Shown: positions 2,017 to 17,239 of the stretch, one piece after another
Layout of the letters: each line of letters begins with the position of its first letter
Position numbering within the stretch: the stretch's first letter is position 1
Origin: a virus
Lineage: Duplodnaviria > Heunggongvirae > Uroviricota > Caudoviricetes
IMG/VR virus record: IMGVR_UViG_2778261381_000006
Location: 1-24,768 of that record
Direction: 5' to 3' (one strand)
DNA length: 24,768 nt
The notes under the pieces: model-generated
Told to the model about the DNA's origin: nothing
What the model saw: the letters and a program-made list of their open reading frames with translations, nothing else
Databases searched by the model: none
Made by a program: the position numbers and the translations under genes

Positions 2017-2448
2017 TCAACGGGGAGTAATAAAGCGTTCAGAGCCTAATCGCTCTAATTCAACGATGGCCATCTTTGACGCCTGAACGATCATGTCTCG
2101 GCGATGCGAAAAGGCGGCGACAGCATGTTTGTATATGTCTGCGATGTGCCGTGCTTCATCCAACTTCTGCCGTTTAGACAGATACTGTGGGTTTGTTTTA
2201 ACCTTAGCGTCCAGTACAGACTCGTTGAACTTAATGCCGTTCATACTCAAGTTCTTACGCTCTGTGTCGTATAGCTTTGCTTCAACAGCTTCAAGGTTAA
2301 GTTTTGCCTCTGCGACATCTCGATCTGCCTGCGCTAGTTTTGACCCATACTCCATTAAAAGCCGTGGCTGTTTACGCCATACTTCCTCAAGGTTGTCGCG
2401 GTCGAACTCCAGATCGGCCATGATTTTAGAAAAAATATCAGTGTTCAC
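2017..2448 (-). CDS. Hypothetical protein (143 aa), coiled-coil rich; possibly a recombination mediator by position next to SSB
   Basis: Clean ORF co-oriented with SSB and FEN; no recognisable catalytic motif. The UvsY-like idea rests on size and neighbourhood only. Confidence 0.5.
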   Translation of the reverse strand: MNTDIFSKIMADLEFDRDNLEEVWRKQPRLLMEYGSKLAQADRDVAEAKLNLEAVEAKLYDTERKNLSMNGIKFNESVLDAKVKTNPQYLSKRQKLDEARHIADIYKHAVAAFSHRRDMIVQASKMAIVELERLGSERFITPR

Positions 2449-2657
2449 TCTAATAGGTTCCTACTTATAAAATCTGTATCAATTATATCAAACAGAGAAC
2501 GGGTTTATGGCGTCATGTCAACTTTGTTCAGGGGAAAAATATTGAGATCACCGAAGATAATTAGTTGTCTTATTTTGGTAAGCTGTGCTGACCATCTTTA
2601 GGTCACATACATGAGATGGATGGGGGTGTGGCATGAACGGATGAAATTCAGTCGCCG

Positions 2658-2686
2658 TTGACAGATGTCAACACTGTGAATAGAAT
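2658..2686 (+). promoter_or_regulatory. Sigma70-type promoter with an operator-like palindrome over the -35
   Basis: TTGACA (2658-2663), 17-bp spacer, TAGAAT (2681-2686). TTGACA-ga-TGTCAA palindrome at 2658-2671. GGAGG RBS then ATG at 2704. Confidence 0.6.
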
Positions 2687-2703
2687 ACTATTATCGGAGG
2701 CGA

Positions 2704-2928
2704 ATGAAGCAACATCCGAATAAGCATATTCAAGCAGCCATTGACTATGCATTAAGTAAAGGCTGGATCTGGGTAGCAGCTGGTGGTGCTGCACATTGTT
2801 TTTGCAGACTGCGATGCGGTAATCCAGAAGGTGAACACAAAACTCACCAAATGAGCGTATGGTCGACTCCGGGTAATCCCGAAAACCATGCCAAACAGAT
2901 CAAACGAATGGTTGATCGTTGTAAATGA
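2704..2928 (+). CDS. Small HicA-like protein (74 aa), putative toxin of a two-gene module
   Basis: Pattern GW...GG.AH.F.R...G......H.MSVWSTP..NHAKQIKRMV resembles the HicA/YcfA fold signature as I recall it. Consensus promoter and RBS. The assignment is tentative. Confidence 0.45.
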   Translation: MKQHPNKHIQAAIDYALSKGWIWVAAGGAAHCFCRLRCGNPEGEHKTHQMSVWSTPGNPENHAKQIKRMVDRCK

Positions 2929-2988
2929 TTTCAAGGCGGCATTAGCCGCCTTTTGCAGAAACTGTCCAACTATCTTCAAAGGAAAACT

Positions 2989-3552
2989 ATGGCGCTTTAT
3001 AACTTCACTCTGACGCTCTCAGGCGTATCGTATGAGACGGAAGGACTGGAAGACGCGCTGTACCAAAACGGCTGTGACGATGCGCTAATTTGCGCATATG
3101 GAAACTCCGTCTATGTAGAATTTGACCGCGAAGCACAATCACTTGATGCAGCTATCGCATCTGCGGTCGACAATATTGAATCAGCCGGTATCGGTGCAAT
3201 TGTTGAATCCGTCGACTCGGCTCTTGTGGGCTTAAGCGATATCGCGGAACTGACAGACCTGTCTCGCCAGGCAGTGGCGTTGCTCAAAGACGGTAAGCGC
3301 GGAAGCGGCGACTTCCCTTGCCCTGTACAACGCATAAAAGGCCAGTCTCCTCTCTGGGATTGGGCTGATGTGGCTGAATGGCTCATGAATAACGGACGAC
3401 TTAAAGAGGGCGATCAAATTGTCCAAAATGCCCGAACTTTGAGTAAATGGAATCTGGCGCTTCGAAACAGCGTCTCGAAAGATTTCAACGAAATAGAGCA
3501 AATTGCGGAGAAACTGATTAAACGCCGCAAAGATATTGCGAAATGCGCATAA
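2989..3552 (+). CDS. HicB-like / HTH DNA-binding protein (putative antitoxin-regulator); start taken at ATG 2989, not the track's TTG 2953
   Basis: AAGGAAAA RBS before ATG 2989. N-terminal region has a HicB-like pattern (Y.FTLTL...NGCDDALI...). Helix-turn-helix-like stretch GLSDIAELTDLSRQAVALLKDG. Lies immediately downstream of the HicA-like gene. Confidence 0.55.
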   Translation: MALYNFTLTLSGVSYETEGLEDALYQNGCDDALICAYGNSVYVEFDREAQSLDAAIASAVDNIESAGIGAIVESVDSALVGLSDIAELTDLSRQAVALLKDGKRGSGDFPCPVQRIKGQSPLWDWADVAEWLMNNGRLKEGDQIVQNARTLSKWNLALRNSVSKDFNEIEQIAEKLIKRRKDIAKCA

Positions 3553-3553
3553 T

Positions 3554-3585
3554 GATGCCCGCCAATTGGCGGGCATCTGTTCTCT
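3554..3585 (+). terminator. Intrinsic terminator after the HicB-like gene
   Basis: GC-rich 10-bp stem gatgcccgcc / ggcgggcatc (loop aatt) at 3554-3577, followed by a T-rich run. Confidence 0.6.
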
Positions 3586-3668
3586 GTAAAGGTGTCTGGC
3601 ATCGTCTGGTTCGTTAACGTTTACTAAACCAATGGTGACAAAAATTAGTTATCTTTGAAAAATAAAGG

Positions 3669-3881
3669 TTGCATGAAAAGAAGGGGTATGCGTTAATAGC
3701 ATCGTTGGTTTGCAAGACAGACCTTATGTAAGCAGTTTTAGTAAAGCAGTCTCAGTTCAGTGTTATCTTCTGATTTCCCTTCTTCGTGAGTCTCCTCCTT
3801 AAGTGCCTAAGTAAGTCCCAATCTATACAGATCAAATTCTCGCCGCACTATGTGGCTCACAAAATTAAGAAGGTAATATCT
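3669..3881 (+). promoter_or_regulatory. Cold-shock gene promoter and long 5'UTR
   Basis: TTGCAT -35 (3669-3674), 17-bp spacer, GTTAAT -10, as in the E. coli cspA promoter. The following ~180-nt leader has cold-box-like sequence (tgcaagacagacc ... aaagcagt ... aagtccc) and an attaagaaggtaatatct ATG end like csp leaders. Confidence 0.6.
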
Positions 3882-4097
3882 ATGTCTAATAAAATGACTG
3901 GTTTAGTAAAATGGTTTAACTCTGATAAAGGCTTTGGCTTTATTTCTCCTGCTGATGGCAGTAAAGATGTTTTTGTACATTTTTCGGCAATTCAGAGTAA
4001 TAATTTCCGCACTTTGGAAGAAGGCCAGCAGGTCGAATTCTCTATCGAGAATGGGGCTAAAGGCCCAGCAGCAGCAAATGTCGTTGCTCTAAGCTGA
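3882..4097 (+). CDS. Cold-shock protein, CspA family (CspB/CspG/CspI-like)
   Basis: [38 protein letters not shown]... is near-identical to the enterobacterial CspA paralogues, including the RNP1/RNP2 motifs. Real start is ATG 3882, inside the track ORF 3786-4097. Confidence 0.9.
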
Positions 4098-4183
4098 TTC
4101 AACGCTGATGATCCTCATTTCTACAATAACGAAGACGGTGTAAGCCTGAGTGGATAGATTTGTAGGATTGTACAAGTTGAATA

Positions 4184-4210
4184 AATTAGCATGGTAAGGC
4201 CATGCTAATT
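4184..4210. terminator. Hairpin in the convergent gap between csp and dnaE-like genes
   Basis: Perfect 11-bp inverted repeat aattagcatgg / ccatgctaatt with loop taagg. Confidence 0.45.
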
Positions 4211-4373
4211 AAATCGACACAACGGCCAGTTTATTCCATAAAAGTGAATTGCCCATTGTGGCGAAATGCGGGGTTGCCGCATGAATAGTCAAAGGCAGAA
4301 GCTAACTGCCGGCATGGCAAAACAAAGTGCGTAAGAGGAGTGACTTCCTCAACAAGCGCCATAATTCTTTATA

Positions 4374-4400
4374 AACCCGCCAACAGGCGGGTTTTCTTTA
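4374..4400 (+). terminator. Intrinsic terminator for the plus-strand csp transcript
   Basis: Stem aacccgcc / ggcgggtt (loop aaca) followed by ttttctttatt; overlaps the stop of the dnaE-like gene. Confidence 0.5.
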
Positions 4401-7400
4401 TTACTTATTTATTGTCTCCGCGATATCAGCCAGAATGGCCTCCAGTCGCTCTCCTTCTTCCGGTCGGAAGTACAGGATATTCGGGTTAAATCCGTAGAAG
4501 ACGGTTGCATCAAGCTCTGGGAAGTACTCCTTACGACCAATCAGATCTGATGGTTTACTCTTATTGTTAAATAGTGCGGTTGAACGACTACCACACGTCA
4601 AAATGTAGGTTGGTCGTACAAGATTAATTTCTTCCCGCATAAAGTCTGTGAACTGGCCTATCTCGTCTTTGGTATAGTCTTTCTCTTTGTCCTTAACCTT
4701 CTTACAAACACCCGTGACATAAAGATCGCCCATGCGCAGATCTCCAACTGTCAGTAGTTTTGCCTTAAAGTCGTCGTATCCGTTCTCCATGAAGTAGCCG
4801 GTACGAGCGTCATTGCCGTTCGCATTGTCCAGAATGATCATGATTTTGGGTTTAATACCAATAGTCGGGCGTATCAACTCCTCACCCAAGCCCATTTCAG
4901 CCGCCATACGTGTCATGAGTACGTTGATTTCGGCAGAACGCTTAGGATTCATTTCGAACGGACGTGATGCTTTAACAGCGTCAATGATGAGATTGCCCAT
5001 CAGCTCAGCCTGGTCGCGCAGTCGTTCAGGATCAGTTGCTGGCAGACTGCCTGGCTCAATTGACGCAAAAGCCCCTACTTTATGAAGCGACTCGCGTACA
5101 CGACTGTTACATGCACGCTTCTCGACCGCTTCATCGAATTGTGCCACTGACTCGAATTTGCCACCAACTTTCTCACGCGCACGCATAATTGCCTGACAAC
5201 CATTTTCAGAACAGCCTTTCACAGCAGAGAATGGCGCATACAGTGCCTGACTGCCGTCTTCGAGTGTGCGGATCTCAATTCGGTTAGATGACACATTAAC
5301 GTCTGGTGGCAATACGCGAATGCCATAGGTCAGCGCATCCTTCACCAGCCCCTGATGCTTATCCTCGCCCAGAATGGTGAGCGCAGCTGCGAAGAACTCA
5401 GCAGGGTAGTGCGTCTTTAGCCACATAGACTGATAACTGATTAAAGAATAAGAAACGGAGTGTGATTTATTGAACTGATAGGCTCCGTTTTTCTCAAATG
5501 CGGTCCAGATCTCCTTCGCTTTCATCTCTGATAGCCCTGGATGTGACGCTGTAACGCGTACTGCGTTTATAGGTAGTTTTGCGCCGTGCTCAAGTGCCTC
5601 TTCGACAGTTTTCAGAGTTCCGTCTTCGCATTTAAAATGTTCCGCACGGTGAATGCGCTGTGTAGTGCCATCTTCCAGCTCAACGTCTATCCAGCCAGCT
5701 TGAGCCTGAACGATGAACTTCTCGCCCATGCTCTTCATTTTTTCCATGTTCTTCTTACCGATTGCGGAACGCACAGCGTCAGCTTCAGCCATTGTGAAGC
5801 CGGCAAGCAATCGAGTCGCGTTCATCGTCTGTTCCTGATAGAGAATCACGCCATTTGTTTCCGCGGTAAGTTCATCAAGAACGGGGTGTAATGATTCCGG
5901 CGTCATAAAGCCTTTGGCGACAGAAACATAGTCATCCAACATGCCTGATTGAATTGGCCCCGGCCGGAAGAGCGCAGTTGTAGCGACGACCGTTTTAAAG
6001 CTCATTGGCTCAATTCCACCACCTAAATCTTTAAGCAGCTTGCGCATTGGGCCTGATTCAAGCTGGAAAACACCTTGAGTGTACCCAGCAGCAAAACCAT
6101 CCAGCACCTTGCGATCTTCAAGAGAAATGGCATCAAGATTGATATCTTCACCTGTGTTCTCTTTTATGTAGCGTTTTGCACTATCGAGCAAATCGAGAGT
6201 TGCCAGGCCAAGCACGTCCAGCTTAATTAGGCCCATAGCCTCGCAGTAACGCTTGTCAAATGCGATACAACGCGCGTCACCACGGCGCTCAACCGGTGTA
6301 CGTTCTGTCAGAGGAACACCTGCTACGATCATCCCTGCCGCATGTCTACCAAAGCCACGCATAAGGCTTTGTAACTTGCAGGCTGCATTGAATGCATCAG
6401 GATATTTTGTTGCGTATTTGTCGAGACTTGCCAGTTGTTCGCGCAGTTCTTCCAATGGAAGGCTATCATCCTCAGCGTTCTTCAGTTCTTTTGATACCGC
6501 CATATCTGCGGACTCCACACCATAAATACGAGCGGTGTCACGTAGTGCAGAGGCTGCGCCCAGGTAGGTGAAGTTCGGAATGCCTGCAACGTAATCTTCG
6601 CCGTAGCGTTCATTCAGATACTCGATCACCTCATGGCGACGTGCCTGGCTGAAGTCCAAATCCGCATCTGGCAAGTCGAGACGCTCAGGGTTGATGAAAC
6701 GTTCAAACAGAAGACCGTGACGGATAGGGTCGACGTTGGTTATGCCTATGCACCATGCCACCAAAGAGCCAGCGGAGGAACCACGACCAGGCCCGACAGG
6801 AATGCCAGTTTCACGGCTGTGATTCATCAGATCGCGTACCATCAGGAAGTAACCACAAAATCCCAGGCGAGTAAGCGTGTCCATTTCGTACTTAAGTCGC
6901 TCAACATAAACCCTGTTCTCAGAAGCCGGTGGTGTGTATCCAAACTCTTTTGTGGTAAGACGTTTACGCAGCCCTGCAACAGCCAGTTTCATCAGCGTTG
7001 CAGGTTCGTCGTCTGCCATCTTGGGCAGTGCTGGTGGCAATTCATGCCAGCGCCATGTACAGGCTTCGATAATGGAGTCCTGCGTTGTTGAGGCCATTGC
7101 AGCTGTTACCGGCACATCCATGCGAACGGAGAAGGCTTTAAGCGCCTCAAGGAGATGGCGGCGACCATTGACGGCGTTATCTCGCTGGTGGGGTATACGC
7201 AGACGATGCGGCTGGTCGATTTTTATGTTGTTCGTAACCATGTGCGCAATGTCTTTAATGTCTGCATCGTCGATCGATTCGTAATAAGCGGGATAGAACG
7301 CTACTGGCTCTATTTTCAGTGCGCTGGCTACTTTCATCGCTCGGACGTTAATCTGGTCGTAGAATGGGGTAGGGTGCGGATAAACCACGCTATAGAAGTT

Positions 7401-7919
7401 GTCTTTCCCGCCCGCTGTAATCAGTGAGCTTATGATTTTTGCAAAATCGTTGCGTTGGAACACGCTACCGATGTCGGAAGTGAGCAGGATGATGTTGCCT
7501 TTGGCATATGTAGAAACCAACTGTTCGAGCGAGAGACGCGGTACAAAGTAGAACTGTTCTCGTGTGTTGGCCACCGTCATTAGTTCGCAGATGTCGCGAT
7601 ATCCTTGCTCATTTTTAATTAGAGCGGTAAACGAGTAGTTACGTCCCCGCTCTAATGATTCCATACATCTCATAGATTCTTTAGCAAGTTTAGCCCGGTG
7701 CTCGTATGTGGGATCATCAACGATATTTAGTTTCACACCACAAATAACCGCCATGTCGTCACCAGCGGCACGTTGTAGTGGAATAACACTCGCAATATTC
7801 ATGCTATCTGCTGAAATTACAGCGGTGTAGCCAGCTTCTCTGGCAATCTTCACCGCGTTTTCTGCTTTTAGAGCCGACTCCCCAAGTGAGAAGTCAGTTC
7901 GAACCATCAGTGCTTTCAT
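4401..7919 (-). CDS. dnaE: DNA polymerase III alpha subunit homologue (DnaE-type, C-family replicative polymerase), phage-encoded
   Basis: 1172 aa. N-terminal PHP-like region. Signature blocks match E. coli DnaE: GFCGYFLMVRDLMNHSRETGIPVGPGRGSSAGSLVAWCIGITNVDPI...LLFERFINPER, YQEQTMNATRLLAGFTMAEADAVRSAIGKK, GAYQFNKSHSVSYSLISYQSMWLKTHYPAEF. Divergent elsewhere, consistent with a phage copy. Confidence 0.85.
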   Translation of the reverse strand: MKALMVRTDFSLGESALKAENAVKIAREAGYTAVISADSMNIASVIPLQRAAGDDMAVICGVKLNIVDDPTYEHRAKLAKESMRCMESLERGRNYSFTALIKNEQGYRDICELMTVANTREQFYFVPRLSLEQLVSTYAKGNIILLTSDIGSVFQRNDFAKIISSLITAGGKDNFYSVVYPHPTPFYDQINVRAMKVASALKIEPVAFYPAYYESIDDADIKDIAHMVTNNIKIDQPHRLRIPHQRDNAVNGRRHLLEALKAFSVRMDVPVTAAMASTTQDSIIEACTWRWHELPPALPKMADDEPATLMKLAVAGLRKRLTTKEFGYTPPASENRVYVERLKYEMDTLTRLGFCGYFLMVRDLMNHSRETGIPVGPGRGSSAGSLVAWCIGITNVDPIRHGLLFERFINPERLDLPDADLDFSQARRHEVIEYLNERYGEDYVAGIPNFTYLGAASALRDTARIYGVESADMAVSKELKNAEDDSLPLEELREQLASLDKYATKYPDAFNAACKLQSLMRGFGRHAAGMIVAGVPLTERTPVERRGDARCIAFDKRYCEAMGLIKLDVLGLATLDLLDSAKRYIKENTGEDINLDAISLEDRKVLDGFAAGYTQGVFQLESGPMRKLLKDLGGGIEPMSFKTVVATTALFRPGPIQSGMLDDYVSVAKGFMTPESLHPVLDELTAETNGVILYQEQTMNATRLLAGFTMAEADAVRSAIGKKNMEKMKSMGEKFIVQAQAGWIDVELEDGTTQRIHRAEHFKCEDGTLKTVEEALEHGAKLPINAVRVTASHPGLSEMKAKEIWTAFEKNGAYQFNKSHSVSYSLISYQSMWLKTHYPAEFFAAALTILGEDKHQGLVKDALTYGIRVLPPDVNVSSNRIEIRTLEDGSQALYAPFSAVKGCSENGCQAIMRAREKVGGKFESVAQFDEAVEKRACNSRVRESLHKVGAFASIEPGSLPATDPERLRDQAELMGNLIIDAVKASRPFEMNPKRSAEINVLMTRMAAEMGLGEELIRPTIGIKPKIMIILDNANGNDARTGYFMENGYDDFKAKLLTVGDLRMGDLYVTGVCKKVKDKEKDYTKDEIGQFTDFMREEINLVRPTYILTCGSRSTALFNNKSKPSDLIGRKEYFPELDATVFYGFNPNILYFRPEEGERLEAILADIAETINK

Positions 7920-9430: not shown

Positions 9431-11539
9431 TTACTTCAAAATGATACGAGATAGTTCAGTAACTACAGATGAACCAAGACTATCAACACTAGTTACCAGG
9501 GCATGATTTGCGTAAAATCTCTCCGGTGCATCAGTCATGATGCCAATTGCCATCAAATCAATGTCAGTCTGCGTTTCAATTTGCTTCGTAACCGAACGCA
9601 AATGGGCGTCAAAACCTCTCCCAACAGCCCACGGCGCGCCATCACTCAGAACAAGCATGATCTTCCTGTCCTCCAAGCGACCGGAAAATAACGATGCAAG
9701 GCTGGCTATGCTTTCACCATCCACGTTATTAAGAAGTGGGAATGTGTAGCCTACGCACCCCATACGTGAGCGAACTTCGCGAGAATTTGCTTTTTCATTC
9801 CAATTTTTGATGATAGGTAGCATTAAAGATTCAAAGCGAGAGAACTCATATTTGATAGCCTTAAGTTCTCCTGCTGCCATATGACTGCCAAATGTAGTGA
9901 AGCCGGTGATAATGTTGGGAACATTTATTCGATCAAGTGCATCGGCGATGGTATATGCACTTGCAAGAGCTAGTTTTATCGTTTCGCCACTCATTGAACC
10001 CGATAAATCAATCACTTGTTGAACACAGGCGTTAACGGCTTTAGATTCTTCTTTTTTACGAAACACGCGATCATCATTCATTGTTAATCTGTAGATACTT
10101 GAACCATGAATGCGCCCCCGACGCTGGCCAGGTATAAACTGAACTCTGTTTCTGCTTGCTATTGCACGTTCCAGGTCTTTTGCCAGCGTCGACGAAACAC
10201 CTGACGAAAGGTGCTTTTCAATATATTTGTCGAAGAGCTGGTTGCCTTCAGGAACGATGCGATAACGGCTGATTGGATATCCACCTAAATCAATATCGGA
10301 GAATGTTTTAATAAGCCGTTTGATATGGGCTTCTGCCTGATCAATCGAGCCGATGAAGTCGTATGAGCGATTGTATGGCCTGTATTCGCTTTTCGAGCTT
10401 TCTGTTAACTCGCTTTTAATCGTTTCGGATAGCGCATCTTCTGTCATGCCTCCGACTTCATCTTCCATGCTATCCAACTCCTCTAAAGCCTCTTCCAGAC
10501 TCATTTTTGACGGAGTTGGAATGTCTGAAGAGCCGTCTTCTGTCGATTTTCTTTTTTCGTGGTCAGTGGTAAATGATTCTGACGCCGCGTTATCAGAAGC
10601 ACCAGAATCTGATACCTCTTTATCATTTTCTGTATCATCGAATATTGTTTCTGATGATTCAGAATTATCTGAATCATCACTGTCGTTATTATCATGTTTG
10701 TACTTACTGTGTGATTCTGATTTGATAGATTTGTGATTATCTAACGCTGAGGGTGTCTCATGATCTTCGTTGTCTTCATTGTTTTCTCCAGAGGCATCCG
10801 TCTGGTCAGCGTCTGAAGGATCGGAAGTTTTTCCCGGAGCTGACTCCTTACCTTTGCTTTCACTTTCAGTGTCTTTGAGGATCTTAGCTATGGTCGCAGC
10901 CACCTTTACACAATCCTCGGTGCAAGACATGTTACGCACGGCCACATCGATACCATGTTCTTTTAATAATGAAATTGGTTTCTCAATGACAGGCCAATAT
11001 TCATCCATGAAATCTACGAACGGTGCTTGGCCATCCCAGGCTCTTACAACCGGACAGAGAAAGAAGTTTAGAAAAAGCGCGCGCTGATCTTTGCCACAAT
11101 AAGCAATAGCCTCTGAAGCCTTTGTTTTAAAGACTTTTTCGATTATAAGGCGCTGAGTTGCCATCAGATTACGTCTTGTTCCGTTAAAGACCTGACCCAT
11201 TTTTCGCTCGATGAACACGTCTTCTAAGGCATTCCATAGCGACCAGGAAGGAACGCGTCCTTTTTCTCTCATTTTGTTGGACACACGAATATCGGTAAAC
11301 AAAATGTGAGCAACCTCATGATCGAGAAATCCGCGCACAGCATTCATCAATGCCGGTGTTGCGTTATCCGGGATTGATGGGATGTTTACGAGAATTGGCT
11401 CTCCATCATCGTTATAGCGTACATAAGCGTCGTCCCCTCGTTCTGCAACAGGGATGTTTTTACCTGAAAGGAGAGCGACTACTCGTTTTACACTGTCACG
11501 GAAGTCCTGAACCTCTTTGATGGAACGTTTTTTAGACAT
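9431..11539 (-). CDS. vWA-domain protein (CobT-like) with N-terminal HExxH motif and acidic central linker
   Basis: C-terminal MIDAS-type motif VIDLSGSMSGET. About 150 residues of D/E/S-rich low-complexity linker. N-terminal FLDHEVAHILF (HExxH). AAGGA RBS before the ATG. Confidence 0.8.
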   Translation of the reverse strand: MSKKRSIKEVQDFRDSVKRVVALLSGKNIPVAERGDDAYVRYNDDGEPILVNIPSIPDNATPALMNAVRGFLDHEVAHILFTDIRVSNKMREKGRVPSWSLWNALEDVFIERKMGQVFNGTRRNLMATQRLIIEKVFKTKASEAIAYCGKDQRALFLNFFLCPVVRAWDGQAPFVDFMDEYWPVIEKPISLLKEHGIDVAVRNMSCTEDCVKVAATIAKILKDTESESKGKESAPGKTSDPSDADQTDASGENNEDNEDHETPSALDNHKSIKSESHSKYKHDNNDSDDSDNSESSETIFDDTENDKEVSDSGASDNAASESFTTDHEKRKSTEDGSSDIPTPSKMSLEEALEELDSMEDEVGGMTEDALSETIKSELTESSKSEYRPYNRSYDFIGSIDQAEAHIKRLIKTFSDIDLGGYPISRYRIVPEGNQLFDKYIEKHLSSGVSSTLAKDLERAIASRNRVQFIPGQRRGRIHGSSIYRLTMNDDRVFRKKEESKAVNACVQQVIDLSGSMSGETIKLALASAYTIADALDRINVPNIITGFTTFGSHMAAGELKAIKYEFSRFESLMLPIIKNWNEKANSREVRSRMGCVGYTFPLLNNVDGESIASLASLFSGRLEDRKIMLVLSDGAPWAVGRGFDAHLRSVTKQIETQTDIDLMAIGIMTDAPERFYANHALVTSVDSLGSSVVTELSRIILK

Positions 11540-11637
11540 GGCTAATCCTTTGTTATGAAAACAAATTATTTACTAGTGTGTTTAATGTAGCACTGCGCGA
11601 ACAGGGAACTAAGCCATTCGCGCAGGGAGAAGAGGGG

Positions 11638-11850
11638 TTAACAGATTCTGACGGCTAAAGACCCGGAGCCGGTATTGAGAAGCGTGAAGCGTTTGTTGTT
11701 AAGTTCGAATATAAAGCCAGTTGTGTCATTCACACCAACCTGAATCTGCTCATTCGGTAGATCGGTGAGGATGTCAGCTACACACTCATCAGCTAATTTC
11801 TGTACGTGTCCGATCTCAAGAGCGATTAGGCTGGAAATAGTGGTGTTCAT
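11638..11850 (-). CDS. Hypothetical small protein (70 aa)
   Basis: ORF only; weak RBS; no motif recognised. Confidence 0.3.
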   Translation of the reverse strand: MNTTISSLIALEIGHVQKLADECVADILTDLPNEQIQVGVNDTTGFIFELNNKRFTLLNTGSGSLAVRIC

Positions 11851-12101
11851 TCAATCAATCCATTCTAACTTATACTATGGTAAGGAATACTACTAAAATC
11901 TATATCAATACTGAATACATTCATATCATATGCAAGTTGATTTTCTTACCTGTTTTGGGCTAATTTTTCTCCGTGCAATGGCCTTTAACCGGTCTTTTAA
12001 GTGCCTATCGAAAAAAATGATAATAGCTTTACAACCCTAACCTTTGATGTAATATCGGTAAGCACTTACCAGAGAGAATTGAACGCGCAAAGGTTGTAAC
12101 C

Positions 12102-12488
12102 ATGTCTGATAACAAGATTGAATTTATAGAAAGTCGCTACGCTGCTTTTATCGCAGGGTTGATTGAATCCTCACCTATGAGCCAGGCCCAGATAGCCAAA
12201 ACAATTGGGTATAAAAACGCCAACAACCTTTCTTTAATTAAAAGCGGCAAAATTCCTTTGCCTATCGATAAGGTTCGTCCGCTGGCGCTGGCACTGGGCA
12301 TTGAGCCAAGTCGTCTTATGATGATGGTGCTGGAAGAACGCCAACCCGAACTCGCAGCATTTTTATACAAAGAAGGCACTGCTCCTCTTAACGAGGACGA
12401 AAAACAGGTTCTTGCTGCATATAACGAGCGATTCGGTAAAGAGAAAGGCGCATCACAAAAGGTTGTTGAGGCCATAAAGTCTCTATGA
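12102..12488 (+). CDS. HTH DNA-binding protein (XRE/Cro-like regulator)
   Basis: MSQAQIAKTIGYKNANNLSLIKSGKIPLPIDKVRPLALALGIEP is a helix-turn-helix pattern. A GGTAAGcaCTTACC palindrome lies 40 nt upstream. Convergent with the recombinase gene. Confidence 0.6.
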   Translation: MSDNKIEFIESRYAAFIAGLIESSPMSQAQIAKTIGYKNANNLSLIKSGKIPLPIDKVRPLALALGIEPSRLMMMVLEERQPELAAFLYKEGTAPLNEDEKQVLAAYNERFGKEKGASQKVVEAIKSL

Positions 12489-13586
12489 AAAATTTACACG
12501 AATAAGCTCTGTTGATAGACGATCTCCCTTAAATTTGTGGTCAATTTCGTCTAAATCCGGTTGCTCTACGATTGATGCGATGTACGTCGAGAAACTTTCT
12601 AAGGCGTCTCGCATCTCGTCCATATAATCGTGCCGGTCGTAGACCCGATCTATCCCCTCAAGACTGTGGTTCATGATTTTACGTGATACCTCCTGGCTTA
12701 TGCCTAATGCTGGGAAGTAACTACGCGCAGTACGGCGCAAATCTCGGGGTGTAAATGGCTCAAGCTCCATCAGTTCTGGTCGTTCCAGAATACGACGTAA
12801 TGCCTGGGCTATTGCCACTTTAGACATAGGAAGGTCTTTCCCGATTTTTTTATTCGAAGGCACGAGCCACTGGCTGTCTTTACCATATTCGAACAACTCT
12901 TCAATACAAGTGCGCATTAATGAGCTTAAAGGCAGAGAATGCTCACGGGCAGATTTGTTCCTCTTGCCTTGATTCCAAACCCCACGCTTAAGATTGAACT
13001 CACTTTTTTTAGCCCGCAGTACTTCGTCAGGTCGTCTTGCGGATACAAGACATAGCCTGGCCGCCCATTTTGTACCAGCGCACACATTGAAGTAGTCCCA
13101 TATATTCCAGAACACCCATACCTCTGCGTCGGTCAGCTTCCGCTCGCGAGGTGTGGGCTTTGCGCCACCGGCAACTTTGTTAAGTGACATATCGTTTAAC
13201 GGTGACACGTCTATCATCCCCTGGAAGGCGCACCAGCTAAGGAACTGCTTCATCAGAGAGAAAACGCGGCGGCCCATAACAATTTTGCCATCCAGTATTA
13301 GTGGGTTGACCAGTTGGTTCACCATGAACCTATTAATGTCACTTACTTTTACATCGGCAATGTGCGGCAAAACATGTATCAAAATACAATGAACAGCGAT
13401 CTCTGGCCGACGTCTGGTTATCAGCAGAGATAAGCGAGTGAATAACATGAATGCGTCCGAGAATCTCATGTCATTGCTGACCTGGGAGATCATAACGGCC
13501 TGCATTTGAGATGCTCTTTCGAGATACTCTATCGCCTCTTTTGAGGTGTTCTCCGCAGCGCGTGCTCTGTCAAAGCTATTTTTCAT
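12483..13586 (-). CDS. Tyrosine site-specific recombinase (integrase family)
   Basis: Catalytic blocks: ARLCLVSARRPDEVL (Arg I), PRDLRRTARSYF (box II region), NHSLEGIDRVYDRHDY with the nucleophile Tyr. GGTGA RBS before the ATG. Confidence 0.85.
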   Translation of the reverse strand: MKNSFDRARAAENTSKEAIEYLERASQMQAVMISQVSNDMRFSDAFMLFTRLSLLITRRRPEIAVHCILIHVLPHIADVKVSDINRFMVNQLVNPLILDGKIVMGRRVFSLMKQFLSWCAFQGMIDVSPLNDMSLNKVAGGAKPTPRERKLTDAEVWVFWNIWDYFNVCAGTKWAARLCLVSARRPDEVLRAKKSEFNLKRGVWNQGKRNKSAREHSLPLSSLMRTCIEELFEYGKDSQWLVPSNKKIGKDLPMSKVAIAQALRRILERPELMELEPFTPRDLRRTARSYFPALGISQEVSRKIMNHSLEGIDRVYDRHDYMDEMRDALESFSTYIASIVEQPDLDEIDHKFKGDRLSTELIRVNFS

Positions 13587-13613
13587 ATGACAATCACCGA
13601 GTTACGCCGATGC

Positions 13614-13660
13614 ACTGTATAAGTAAACAGTATATTAGGCATAGATTCTTATAGGATCAA
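13614..13660 (-). promoter_or_regulatory. Sigma70 promoter for the recombinase with an overlapping LexA-box-like site
   Basis: On the minus strand: TTGATC (-35, plus 13655-13660), 17-bp spacer, TAATAT (-10, plus 13632-13637). Then CTGTATAAGTAAACAG (plus 13615-13630), which fits CTGT-N8-ACAG, between the -10 and the start codon. Confidence 0.5.
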
Positions 13661-13684
13661 GAGTAAAAGTAACTCATTTTCAGC

Positions 13685-13717
13685 AATGATTCCATACATA
13701 GTAGGTATGGAATCATT
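13685..13717. repeat. Perfect 13-bp inverted repeat with 7-bp spacer (AATGATTCCATAC-ATAGTAG-GTATGGAATCATT)
   Basis: Exact reverse-complement arms at 13685-13697 and 13705-13717, about 25 bp upstream of the recombinase -35. The architecture matches tyrosine-recombinase core sites such as loxP and FRT. Confidence 0.7.
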
Positions 13718-13762
13718 TAGCCGTTGTTTTTTGAATTTTAAGGGAACCAAGCGTGAGTTTGG

Positions 13763-13792
13763 TGGGAACAAAAACGGCTCCTGTGAGCCGTT
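13763..13792 (-). terminator. Intrinsic terminator after the glutaredoxin gene
   Basis: Stem aacggctc / gagccgtt (loop ctgt) followed on the minus strand by TTTTTGTT. Confidence 0.55.
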
Positions 13793-13796
13793 AAAA

Positions 13797-14042
13797 TTAG
13801 AGAGTGGTGACGTATGCAGCCAGTTCTGTGTATCCGCCAATCGGTTGGCCATCGATCAGTACCTGGGGGATAGTCTCTACCGGTTTGCCAACAATTTCGC
13901 TAAGTTTTTCCTTATCGATACCGGCAGTGGTGATGTCGATGTACTCATAATCACCATAGCCGTGTCCCTTTAGTTGTTTCGCCAGCTCGACCGCACGTTT
14001 GCAATATGAGCAGTTATCTCGTCCGTAGATAACGATAGTCAT
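13797..14042 (-). CDS. Glutaredoxin (GrxA-like, CxxC thiol-disulfide oxidoreductase)
   Basis: Active site CSYC near the N-terminus; GKPVETIPQVLIDGQPIGGYTELAAYV closely matches E. coli glutaredoxin 1. Confidence 0.85.
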   Translation of the reverse strand: MTIVIYGRDNCSYCKRAVELAKQLKGHGYGDYEYIDITTAGIDKEKLSEIVGKPVETIPQVLIDGQPIGGYTELAAYVTTL

Positions 14043-14181
14043 GTTTACCTCATAATAATTATGTGTTACTTAACCAGAAAATAAATATTACTATAAAAGA
14101 TAGGTAAGTAAAAACCTATTTAATGTCTGCAATACATCGTAAACTTGCCTGTTAATCACAACTTAATTTAGTTAATATTTA

Positions 14182-15510
14182 ATGCAACTAACAATGGTAA
14201 GTACGAGAGCATACATGCCTGTTTTTATTTCTGTTGCAATTCTAATGTTTTCCATAATAATTTTGTTTTTAGGTTTACTACTTGAGCCATTTCAAGATTG
14301 GAAGGTTACAGACCAAATTGCTGTATTGAGTAGTTTTATAACGACAGCGGCTTTTTGTGCAACAGCGTGGAACGCCTATGAAGCAAGAAAAAGTGCAAAG
14401 GCAGCACTGGAGGCCGTTAGGATAACTACCGATTCATTGATTGAGATGAGAAAAAATTCTTTCAAAGAATGGTTTGACACTTTATTAAATCAGCATGATG
14501 AGTTGTACAATAATGTCATACCAATCATTGAACAGACAAAAAAACAATTTAATAAAAATGAAATGCATTCGTTTTTTTATCCATTGGTAAGAAAGCATGA
14601 GGTTATTCAGTACATAAAACATATTACCAATATATTAGTCTATGTAGATAACCGATTTTACATAGATGGAAATTGTTTTGATGAAAAAATGGAATATATT
14701 ATTCAATTGAGTGGAAAAATACCACCGCAAATGAAGTTGGTTATTGCAGTTTTTGGATTGGACATCGATTCTCGTGAACCGCAGGATTCAAAAAAACTGT
14801 ATGCTTTATTAAATAAATATGATTTTTTCAAAGATGAAATATTCTTTGATGATGCTTATTCAAGCATGCCTGAAGTAGAGCTATTTATAAAGGATAGATT
14901 TGATAAAATATTTAAAACCAAGATGTTAAAATACTTTTGGAACGTGATTAAGGAATATTATTCTCAAGTTGAAGTCAAAGAAATCTGGGTGGTTCGTCGT
15001 CCGCAAGTTGCTTCATCGGTATTAATGAACTACCAAACACCATTATCTGGTTTAATTGATGATTATTTTAAAAATTTGCCAAATGAGGTAAAGAGCATTT
15101 TTGATGAAGCACTAAAAAAAGCTAATGATAGTGTTACGTCTATTGATGACTATATTCATCGTTTGATCGGTTGCAGAGTCGCGTCGATTTCAGAGCATGT
15201 CCATTTCGAAAGTGAAATACTGAGTAGTGAAAAGGATGTGAAGGATATGATTAAAAATTACATAGAGCAAAGAAAAACTGGAAAAAATGCGGTAAATCTT
15301 GGGCAGTTATATTTCTCGAGTGAGTCAGATGTAATTACAGGTGATCAGTTGAGTGATGCGATCGATGAATATGAGAAAAAGTTGGCACTTATGGCAATAA
15401 ACGATAATGATGATAGTGATAACCTATTGTGCCATATCTATATTAAATCATGTGAGATAGTTGATGAATATAAGCGTGAAACATTAAAATTGGGCGAGTA
15501 CGCACAATAG
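14182..15510 (+). CDS. Membrane-anchored protein of unknown function (2 N-terminal TM helices plus ~380-aa soluble domain); candidate exclusion or abortive-infection factor
   Basis: Markedly AT-rich relative to flanks. Hydrophobic segments MPVFISVAILMFSIIILFLGLLL and IAVLSSFITTAAFCATAW. No catalytic motif recognised. True start may be ATG 14215 (weak GAGAG RBS). Confidence 0.65.
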   Translation: MQLTMVSTRAYMPVFISVAILMFSIIILFLGLLLEPFQDWKVTDQIAVLSSFITTAAFCATAWNAYEARKSAKAALEAVRITTDSLIEMRKNSFKEWFDTLLNQHDELYNNVIPIIEQTKKQFNKNEMHSFFYPLVRKHEVIQYIKHITNILVYVDNRFYIDGNCFDEKMEYIIQLSGKIPPQMKLVIAVFGLDIDSREPQDSKKLYALLNKYDFFKDEIFFDDAYSSMPEVELFIKDRFDKIFKTKMLKYFWNVIKEYYSQVEVKEIWVVRRPQVASSVLMNYQTPLSGLIDDYFKNLPNEVKSIFDEALKKANDSVTSIDDYIHRLIGCRVASISEHVHFESEILSSEKDVKDMIKNYIEQRKTGKNAVNLGQLYFSSESDVITGDQLSDAIDEYEKKLALMAINDNDDSDNLLCHIYIKSCEIVDEYKRETLKLGEYAQ

Positions 15511-15523
15511 GTTGTGCAGATTC

Positions 15524-15551
15524 GAAGCCTCTTTAAATTTTGCGCTGAAAA
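15524..15551. repeat. Direct repeat copy 1 (gaagcctctttaaattttgcgctgaaaa)
   Basis: About 28 bp matching 16445-16474 with 2 mismatches; the two copies flank the lipoprotein gene. Confidence 0.6.
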
Positions 15552-15588
15552 TTGTTATTTTACGGTAAGTAACGCTGTTTTCAGCGCA
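15541..15588. other. Large hairpin in the convergent gap (11-bp stem tgcgctgaaaa / ttttcagcgca, 26-nt loop containing a GGTAAGTA motif)
   Basis: Exact 11-bp inverted repeat; the loop contains ttacggtaagtaacg. Confidence 0.5.
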
Positions 15589-15761
15589 TAAATGTCAGTG
15601 AATAATTTGATGCTTGCTGTAACGATGGTACGCTACGTAAAATCCGATATTTATGAGACTGATTGCAGGTAAGGACTTACATAGCGCACAAAAATTGCTG
15701 ATACCAGATGCAATATATGTTTAATGTCAAATTTTAGATAGGGGCGTATACGCCCCTGTCA

Positions 15762-16316
15762 TTATTTTATTTTATCTTCTTCTAAACGAGAAAATTTAAA
15801 TTGTTTATCGGTGATGGTGAGTAGTGTTACACCTTCCTTTTCGTGTAAAAGACCGGCACCGTTTGACACCATAATCAATCTATCCTTCCCTCGAAAGATT
15901 TCATAATATTTACCAGCTCCACAAGTTTTAGTTTCAATACAGTCCATGCCAGATACTGCTTCTCTGTTAAAAACACGATCTTTTGTAGCAACGGGTTTTC
16001 CGTACTCCTTTGTCAGCATTTCACTTATCTGGATGAATGTATACTTACCAACATTACTGGTTAATGACATTTCGACTTTTCCGTCGATCAGGTTGCCATT
16101 CGTATGCGGTTCTTTTTCAGTCGGACTATTTTTATCTTGAAGAATAAACACTTCAACATTTTGTGTTAGCTTCTTGAATTGGGCTTTATAATTTTGTTCA
16201 AGTTCACTTTTATCTTTGCCTATTAACGTTAATTCATCTATTTCAGATTCGTTACACCCTGTTAGTGTTAACGCAATTATTAGAGATGCGAAAATATTGA
16301 GATGGCACTTCTTCAT
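15762..16316 (-). CDS. Lipoprotein of unknown function
   Basis: Signal peptide with lipobox LTLTG-C (MKKCHLNIFASLIIALTLTGC). GGAGA RBS. AT-rich. Confidence 0.7.
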   Translation of the reverse strand: MKKCHLNIFASLIIALTLTGCNESEIDELTLIGKDKSELEQNYKAQFKKLTQNVEVFILQDKNSPTEKEPHTNGNLIDGKVEMSLTSNVGKYTFIQISEMLTKEYGKPVATKDRVFNREAVSGMDCIETKTCGAGKYYEIFRGKDRLIMVSNGAGLLHEKEGVTLLTITDKQFKFSRLEEDKIK

Positions 16317-16430
16317 TAATTTGTCTCCATGTTTAACTGCTGCGATCTAATCAGGAACATGAAGGCAGTCTAACGCTGCCTCGGATCAAAGCGATAAAAC
16401 GATACGTGAATATAACTAAGTGTCAACAAA

Positions 16431-16474
16431 TCAAAAAAGGGGCCGAAGCCCCTTTGAATTTTGCGCTGAAAAAA
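16431..16474. terminator. Bidirectional intrinsic terminator plus direct repeat copy 2
   Basis: Stem aaaggggc / gccccttt (loop cgaa) at 16436-16455, flanked by an A-tract upstream and T-tract downstream. Sits downstream of the minus-strand tRNA cluster. Confidence 0.65.
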
Positions 16475-16609
16475 GTGTTGCTAGGATGTTAGCAAGCTAT
16501 GGTTAAGAACGTCTGCCGTAATTGTCTATCACAGCGTTGAGCGGTCTGGTTTATGTTAGCGGAGTCTTAATCTGGTTGATTAAAAGGCCAAACCGCTCAA
16601 CGCTGTGTC

Positions 16610-16696
16610 TGGCGGAGAGTAATGGAATCGAACCATCATCGTTTGCACAATGGGACGGTTTTCAAGACCGCTTGAGCACCATGCTCCCTACTCTCC
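16610..16696 (-). tRNA. tRNA-Ser (anticodon UGA), type II with long variable arm
   Basis: Manual fold: acceptor GGAGAGU/ACUCUCC, anticodon stem-loop GCGGU-CUUGAAA-ACCGU, T-arm GAUGG-UUCGAUU-CCAUU, encoded CCA. The D-arm is irregular. Confidence 0.7.
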
Positions 16697-16990
16697 AATT
16701 GTGTTGTGTGCTCCGTTTCGTGGAGCTAACGGCGGGTGATCAGACCGCACCAGGTTGGACGTATTTCAGCGTTATGCTGTTGCAAGAGAGCCAAATTGTG
16801 ATGGCCGGTGCTGATCTCCGGCATTGCCTACGTTAGCGGCCTTCAGGCAGTTCATCCGCTTGCTTCTACGTCGCACATCAGCCTGTGCATTCACCACAAT
16901 GTTGAGAACACTGGTTGTCACGCTGCAACGCAACATTATATTCATAAATTGGGATATGAACCCGTTACGCCAATGTTCTCAATATTATGT

Positions 16991-17066
16991 TGGTGCCGGT
17001 TAACGGACTTGAACCGCTGGCCATTTGCTTACAAAGCGACTGCTCTACCAACTGAGCTAAACCGGC
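16991..17066 (-). tRNA. tRNA-Thr (anticodon UGU), anticodon stem with two mismatches
   Basis: Acceptor GCCGGUU/AACCGGC, D-arm GCUC-AGUUGGUA-GAGC, T-arm AGCGG-UUCAAGU-CCGUU, encoded CCA. Anticodon loop UUUGUAA, but the stem GUCGC/GCAAA pairs at only 3 of 5 positions. Confidence 0.5.
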
Positions 17067-17070
17067 AATT

Positions 17071-17157
17071 TGGTGGGGAGTGATGGAGTCGAACCACCCG
17101 AGTCGCAATGACAGTAGATTTACAGTCTACACCGCTACCTCTACGGACTAACTCCCC
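17071..17157 (-). tRNA. tRNA-Tyr (anticodon GUA), type II
   Basis: Acceptor GGGGAGU/ACUCCCC, anticodon arm GUAGA-CUGUAAA-UCUAC, T-arm GGUGG-UUCGACU-CCAUC, long variable arm, encoded CCA. Confidence 0.7.
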
Positions 17158-17162
17158 TAAAT

Positions 17163-17237
17163 TGGCGATGGTGGGTGGATTCGAACCACCGACCAGTTGG
17201 TTAACAGCCAACTGCTCTACCGCTGAGCTACACCATC
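17163..17237 (-). tRNA. tRNA-Asn (anticodon GUU)
   Basis: Canonical cloverleaf: acceptor GAUGGUG/CACCAUC, D-arm GCUC-AGCGGUA-GAGC, anticodon arm GUUGG-CUGUUAA-CCAAC, T-arm GGUGG-UUCGAAU-CCACC, encoded CCA. Confidence 0.8.
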
Positions 17238-17239
17238 AA

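Follow-up and report, generated by a model that had tools for sequence, protein, structure and literature searches.

A putative self-repressing toxin-antitoxin-like gene pair of the PDC-M06 family in an SSU5/pHCM2-like phage-plasmid of E. coli

Results

The stretch of viral DNA analysed here (IMG/VR record IMGVR_UViG_2778261381_000006, 24,768 nt, hereafter the window) is an SSU5/pHCM2-like phage-plasmid of E. coli, and it carries on the plus strand a compact operon of two adjacent genes, A and B, which probably forms a toxin-antitoxin (TA)-like module. Gene A (2704-2928) encodes a putative toxin of 74 amino acids (aa), the length given in the initial annotation, and gene B (2989-3552) encodes a protein of 187 aa instead of the 188 aa annotated. 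The gene blocks on both sides lie on the minus strand, so that the operon is indeed transcribed opposite to the surrounding replication genes. The sigma-70-type promoter at 2658-2686 (+) consists of TTGACA (2658-2663), a 17-bp spacer and TAGAAT (2681-2686) and matches the consensus at 11 of 12 positions. Its -35 hexamer is included in the left half-site of a perfect palindrome, GTTGAC-AGAT-GTCAAC (GTTGACAGATGTCAAC, 2657-2672), which is the sole match in the window (0.04 expected); the near-consensus promoter and the palindrome around its -35 had both been proposed before and were confirmed. A scan of the region found 4 promoter-like sites against 3.9 expected from shuffled sequences and was insufficient by itself, so that the promoter is credible because of the quality of the site, its conservation and the RNA sequencing (RNA-seq) data described below. 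Transcription was predicted to start near 2693, giving a leader of about 11 nt, and the Shine-Dalgarno sequence GGAGG of gene A was read from the sequence at 2696-2700 (+), a position kept in the closest Enterobacterales loci. Another promoter-like site of lower quality (ATGTCA-18-TATTAT, 9/12) was observed at 2665-2694 (+), overlapping the right half of the palindrome, and the operator could span two overlapping promoters.

The 3' end of the operon is marked by the intrinsic terminator that the annotation had assigned to it (3554-3577, +), with a 10-bp stem containing eight GC pairs, a T-rich tail, a folding energy of -21.8 kcal/mol and a z-score of -5.2. A second GC-rich hairpin, AAGGCGGC-ATTA-GCCGCCTT (2933-2952, +; -15.8 kcal/mol, z = -3.3), is located between the two genes and is a candidate partial (attenuating) intrinsic terminator. 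The hairpin had been annotated together with a T-run, and of these the hairpin was found and the T-run was weak; no call was made here by the terminator scan, because the T-run consists of just four T's, two of them inside the stem.

Protein A is a small alpha-beta-beta-beta-alpha protein with a Cys/His cluster. Throughout its family H4, K7, H31, T55, P56 and H62 are near-invariant, and W21 is also conserved; H31, the residue with which beta2 begins, was found in 121 of the 127 distant representatives. The Cys/His set comprises C38, Cys or His at position 48 and C73, to which His or Cys at position 75 (75/127 representatives) or, in the clade of the window, H45 is added. This conservation pattern suggests a structural zinc site, which (C38, H45/H48, C73) would probably tie helix 2 to the beta2-beta3 hairpin. 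The polar cluster of H4, K7, H31 and H62 is a candidate active site, and an RNase activity of A is only a guess. In some distant homologues (P0271, P0286, P0315, P0209) the beta2-beta3 loop is enlarged by an additional Cys-rich segment (CPFNxxDCRCGxFC), which may be a second metal-binding knuckle. No B-A fusion was found among 149 A-family representatives, and the N-terminal extensions of some members look like miscalled start codons. Of 39 A homologues, 28 gave weak matches to RuBisCO_small (PF00101; best E 1.2e-4) that did not reach the gathering score and were judged spurious; one homologue from Shewanella sp. (P0039) is named "ribulose bisphosphate carboxylase small subunit" at NCBI, likely an annotation error whose apparent source is such a sub-threshold match. 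Plant lectin matches of the A profile (E 0.04) were judged to be chance.

Protein B is built of three parts. Residues 1-77 (2989-3219, +) correspond to a ferredoxin-like beta-alpha-beta-beta-alpha-beta domain, which carries the family-wide motifs AGCDD and F(D/H)REA and is proposed to bind and neutralise A. Residues 78-136 (3220-3396, +) correspond to an AlpA/excisionase-like winged helix-turn-helix (HTH) domain, with the recognition helix at about 93-100 including R93 and Q94. This domain was recognised by weak PHROG matches to "excisionase and transcriptional regulator" families (phrog_66, 2e-4; phrog_2790, 1e-3) and by the AlphaFold2 (AF2) model, in which helices 82-89 and 93-100, strand 122-124 and helix 125-134 were predicted; Pfam models did not recognise it, and some database entries call B homologues "AlpA family transcriptional regulator". 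The HTH that had been annotated in the second protein is thus present, but it is not of the Xre or ribbon-helix-helix (RHH) type of HicB. Residues 143-186 together with the stop codon (3415-3552, +) make up a C-terminal helical hairpin (AF2 helices 143-162 and 166-186), which is limited to the ~185-aa Enterobacterales class of B, is absent from the ~150-aa class and may serve dimerisation.

The A family comprises 715 clusters at 50% identity, and the 80 species-representative genome loci carrying A were used for comparison. A homologue of B was located directly downstream of A on the same strand in 79 of them, with spacing from a 4-nt overlap to a gap of about 150 nt, and these loci span Enterobacterales, Pasteurellaceae, Neisseriaceae, Acinetobacter, Planctomycetota, Latescibacterota, Anaerolineae, Balneolales and Nitrospinota. 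The architecture of B differed among lineages: the ~185-aa form of Enterobacterales has the N-domain, the winged HTH and the helical hairpin; the ~150-aa form of Acinetobacter, Pasteurellaceae, Neisseriaceae and Moraxellaceae has the N-domain and the winged HTH; and the ~85-aa form of Planctomycetota, Latescibacterota, Anaerolineae and Nitrospinota has the N-domain only. Because the N-domain is the only part present in all three forms, the conserved core consists of A and the ferredoxin-like domain of B. HicAB systems likewise fall into classes, some of which have a DNA-binding domain and some of which lack it (PMC10865869).

Neither a third gene nor a defence-island context was conserved among the 80 loci. 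The 148 immediate neighbours fell into 182 Pfam families, none of which occurred in more than six proteins, and this heterogeneity argues against a third partner. The genomic contexts varied: the pair was found beside YefM/YoeB in the moron region of a P2-like prophage, adjoining a RelE-family pair in an integrative island, on SSU5-like phage-plasmids and, in Providencia, standing alone in the chromosome. The two genes are adjacent, co-directional and co-inherited, and they are patchily distributed, associated with mobile elements and free of fixed neighbours, which are the generic features of type II TA systems.

Conservation of the palindrome was linked to the HTH of B. The pattern GTT[GT]AC-N4-GT[CA]AAC was found 43-69 nt upstream of A in 45 of the 52 loci with an HTH-bearing B, most of the remaining seven having near matches, and in none of the 27 loci whose B is without an HTH; only two stray matches occurred across the 80 loci scanned. 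In all 47 palindrome loci the -35 lies in the left half-site and is followed 16-18 bp on by a TAnnnT hexamer. The four central bases vary freely and the half-site centres are 10 bp apart, a spacing that fits a dimer on one helix face. Moreover, residue 94 of B covaries with base 4 of the half-site. Q94 occurs with GTTGAC in 39 loci, including those of Acinetobacter, where B otherwise belongs to the 150-aa form, and A94 occurs with GTTTAC in four strict and two near matches; one exception was seen. The co-occurrence of palindrome and HTH and the covariation of residue 94 are good indirect evidence, drawn from sequence comparison, that B binds the palindrome and represses its own promoter. In Yersinia pestis NCTC5923 (L012, about 5950-6885 of a 108-kb contig that is probably pMT1-like), A and B are intact but the right half-site has degenerated (GTTGACACGCGCTCAC), which may leave the module derepressed.

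These results also bear on a reading of the pair as something other than a TA system, which we regard as unlikely. B would then be a transcription factor that senses a ligand or a partner through its ferredoxin-like (ACT/RAM-like) domain, and A a harmless small zinc protein modulating B, or a co-expressed enzyme or accessory factor. The HTH and its operator accord with such a role, but the sole conserved operator found is the module's own promoter, and in many phyla a B without a DNA-binding domain is still paired with A, so that the core role of the pair cannot lie in transcriptional regulation. Selfish two-gene modules, moreover, typically show what was seen among these loci: a patchy distribution, an association with mobile elements and no conserved neighbouring target gene.

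The pattern of gene decay pointed indirectly to A as the harmful partner of a TA-like pair. A was inactivated while B remained full-length in five loci, namely by conversion of W53 to a stop codon in L017, by different frameshifts in L054 and L058 and by stop codons in L079 and L042; two of these five cases came from metagenome bins and call for caution. The opposite situation, an intact A without B, was not found among the loci examined, and in one locus (L073) A, B and the operator had all decayed. We estimated the probability of decay in A only at about 0.005 if mutations hit the two genes in proportion to their length. The three Providencia loci among the five (L017, L054 and L058, about 5950-6250) represent independent inactivations of A with a full-length B and an intact operator, and they look like orphan antitoxin-repressor genes.

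The pair is expressed in lysogens. In the RNA-seq data of LF82 lysogens, CYRAN_51, whose product is 100% identical to A, and CYRAN_50 (B) were transcribed 30-fold and 14-fold, respectively, above the prophage background (PMC9928086 Table 1). The transcript of A was thus about twice as abundant as that of B, and the module is an expressed moron in lysogens. By analogy with true HicAB modules, the hairpin at 2933-2952 may stop part of the transcripts after A. Modules of the hicA(T)B subfamily, which are true HicAB, have an internal "noncanonical" terminator with a UUU tract that increases the ratio of toxin to antitoxin and drives competition between plasmids, and true HicAB modules show the same split into hairpin and overlap variants (PMC11878559) that was observed here. 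In the related Enterobacterales loci examined, the A-B spacer usually contains a GC-rich hairpin whose sequence varies and which is often accompanied by a short T-tract, and a perfect stem of at least 7 bp was present in 15 of 20 loci; in Acinetobacter, in the majority of Pasteurellaceae and Neisseriaceae loci and in a few further lineages, A and B instead share 4 nt or are separated by no more than 3 nt.

The initial annotation had called the two proteins HicA-like and HicB-like from motif patterns, and these family labels did not hold. No match to Pfam HicA_toxin (PF07927) was found at E values up to 10 for A, its 39 close homologues or the 127 distant representatives, while the genuine HicA proteins in the same database, used as a positive control, all carry PF07927. 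Profile-profile comparison was no more significant. Comparison of A (A1 or A3) by hhalign with E. coli HicA, a HicA alignment or a mixed alignment with PDB sequences gave probabilities of 6-68%, and the best match, of 19 columns, was out of register, pairing the N-terminus of A with beta3-alpha2 of HicA. This pairing, of the HPNK helix of A with the PRHP helix 2 of HicA, suggested a circularly permuted HicA, a candidate that was rejected because A and HicA have the identical alpha-beta-beta-beta-alpha order. The N-domain of B does not have the partial RNase H fold of HicB (beta-beta-beta-alpha-beta), and B has no Pfam HTH_3 or RHH match. Among public records, only that of phage Cyrano bears the HicA/HicB label, the other sources giving "hypothetical" or "DNA-binding protein". 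A true but very divergent HicAB, as annotated in Cyrano, with A as a HicA mRNA interferase whose histidine stands at the start of beta2 and B as the HicB antitoxin, is quite improbable in the light of these searches. What speaks for it is the position of H31 and a lone in-register local match to B. pseudomallei HicA, which was weak (9.5 bits) and placed H31 one residue past H24 of that protein.

Searches of Pfam, NCBIfam and PDB sequences with single sequences and profiles gave nothing significant for A or B. By contrast with HicAB, clear matches were obtained to the PADLOC models of PDC-M06, for A to PDC-M06A (PDLC04383, 1.2e-19) and for B to PDC-M06B (PDLC04388, 1.3e-32), and A and B strongly matched PHROGs 5923 and 2620. 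PDC-M06 is a computational phage defence candidate recognised via "guilt by embedding" in BREX, DISARM or type I restriction-modification (RM) loci (Payne et al. 2024, bioRxiv 10.1101/2024.01.29.577857). The profile matches indicate that the pair is a member of this widespread family and, as judged by the HicA and HicB membership tests described above, lies outside HicA/HicB. No functional study of the A-B pair was found in the literature on PDC-M06 and on TA systems of SSU5 phage-plasmids. A phage-defence system acting otherwise than by toxin neutralisation, for example a sensor-effector pair that excludes competing phages, agrees with the match of both models, the embedding by which PDC-M06 was defined and the expression of A-B as morons in lysogens, but it is very unlikely in our judgement, given that PDC entries are computational candidates only, that just about 8 of the 148 immediate neighbours in the 80 genomes match any PADLOC defence model, and that defence is compatible with a TA mechanism, many TA modules acting by abortive infection.

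Over positions 2400-3800 the window shares 99.6% identity with Escherichia phage Cyrano (pLF82) and 100% with several E. coli plasmids of about 110 kb. Matching plasmid records number 265 in total, and the cassette is carried by SSU5/pHCM2-type phage-plasmids of E. coli, Enterobacter, Citrobacter, Klebsiella and Yersinia. Phage SSU5 itself has an A homologue of 57% identity at the same position. The operon is flanked upstream by a gene for a gp32-like single-stranded DNA-binding protein (871-1899, -) and a UvsY-like gene (2017-2448, -) and downstream by dnaE (4401-7919, -). A cspG-like gene with a cspA-type thermoregulator leader (3704-4122, +; coding sequence 3882-4097; Rfam cspA thermoregulator, 185.7 bits) is located 3' of the A-B terminator on the same strand and forms with A-B a plus-strand "moron" islet amid minus-strand replication and recombination genes.

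Further features were observed in the window and its relatives. Three tandem tRNA genes are present at 16994-17237 (-) of the window (Rfam tRNA, 41.6-75.5 bits). The window is collinear with pCTX (L095, NZ_CP047004) to about 14 kb and divergent thereafter (compared region about 14054-18840); pCTX carries an ISEcp1-blaCTX-M-55 insertion at the homologous place, and the window is without it. In an Enterobacter SSU5-like element (L083; regions 2548-4890 and 10053-14305), RecA contains an intein (Intein_splicing and LAGLIDADG_3) and dnaE is interrupted by an HNH/NUMOD4 homing-endonuclease gene.

Discussion

On balance, we favour the view that A and B constitute an autonomous, self-repressing type II TA-like module of an uncharacterised family (PDC-M06; PHROGs 5923 and 2620), with A as the toxin and B as the antitoxin and repressor. 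This view is based on the observed sequence features, the pairing of A with B, the link between operator and HTH, the expression in lysogens and the asymmetric decay of A. The TA cassette of the initial annotation is partly supported, in its two-gene layout and by these last lines of evidence, but not in its identity as HicAB.

In the proposed mechanism, A would be a 74-aa toxin of HicA-like topology, held by a probable zinc staple and with H4, K7, H31 and H62 as its candidate active site, and the ferredoxin-like N-domain of B would bind and neutralise it. The winged HTH of B would bind GTTGAC-N4-GTCAAC as a dimer over the -35 and thereby shut off the operon, and the A:B ratio would be set by the intergenic hairpin, at which part of the transcripts would end after A. 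For the phage-plasmid, the module could favour retention, by killing or arrest of the cells that lose it or by plasmid-plasmid competition, or abortive-infection defence, or both.

A bolder proposal, which we offer tentatively, is that A-B founds a new, phylum-spanning TA family. Its toxin would be a zinc-stapled protein of HicA-like fold that has a His/Lys active site of its own and that either branched off long ago from the HicA/dsRBD toxins or arose by convergence, and its antitoxin would use a ferredoxin-like neutralising domain of a kind not known among other antitoxins. An AlpA-type winged HTH, with residue 94 reading base 4 of the operator, would have been recruited in some lineages, and the phage-plasmids would use the module for addiction or phage exclusion.

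Some SSU5/pHCM2-type phage-plasmids spread extended-spectrum beta-lactamase genes, and a retention or phage-exclusion module, if true, would bear on their persistence. With 715 clusters across several phyla, the family escapes Pfam and NCBIfam, and its members are labelled either "hypothetical" or HicAB, the latter incorrectly by the usual criteria; its definition would mend the HicAB annotation and give PDC-M06 a testable mechanism. The family is also a natural system for the study of operator recognition, in which Q94 or A94 goes with G or T at half-site position 4, and of the control of the toxin:antitoxin ratio, in which some lineages have an internal terminator and others a gene overlap.

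Among the known systems, HicAB resembles the pair in organisation and regulation. In both, a small putative toxin of alpha-beta-beta-beta-alpha topology is encoded first, the second protein consists of an N-terminal partner domain and a C-terminal DNA-binding domain, and a palindromic operator lies within the promoter. The compact A-B variants without a DNA-binding domain resemble HicAB classes 1 and 3, and the variants with an internal GC hairpin and a short U-tract correspond to hicA(T)B, those with overlapping genes to hicA(O)B. However, no HicA or HicB sequence signal is detectable in A-B, A has a conserved Cys/His cluster and an N-terminal HPNK motif that HicA is without, the partner domain of B is ferredoxin-like instead of a partial RNase H fold, and its winged HTH is AlpA/excisionase-like instead of an Xre-HTH or RHH.

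MqsRA and HigBA also encode the toxin first, followed by an antitoxin that uses a DNA-binding domain of its own to repress the operon at a palindrome. MqsR and HigB have RelE-like folds, and MqsA has a structural zinc site; zinc is thus in the antitoxin in MqsRA, whereas the Cys/His cluster is in the putative toxin here, and no sequence or fold match of A-B to either system was seen. The AlpA/Xis-type regulators of the MerR superfamily are akin to residues 78-136 of B through the weak PHROG matches to excisionase and regulator families. The HTH of B differs from them in its fusion partners, a ferredoxin-like domain and, in Enterobacterales, also a helical hairpin, and B is always paired with gene A, with no conserved integrase or excision context. 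The PDC-M06 cassettes were defined within defence loci, whereas the cassette described here sits in the replication region of a phage-plasmid, outside any defence system; nevertheless, the match of both proteins to the PDC-M06 models places it in the same two-gene cassette family.
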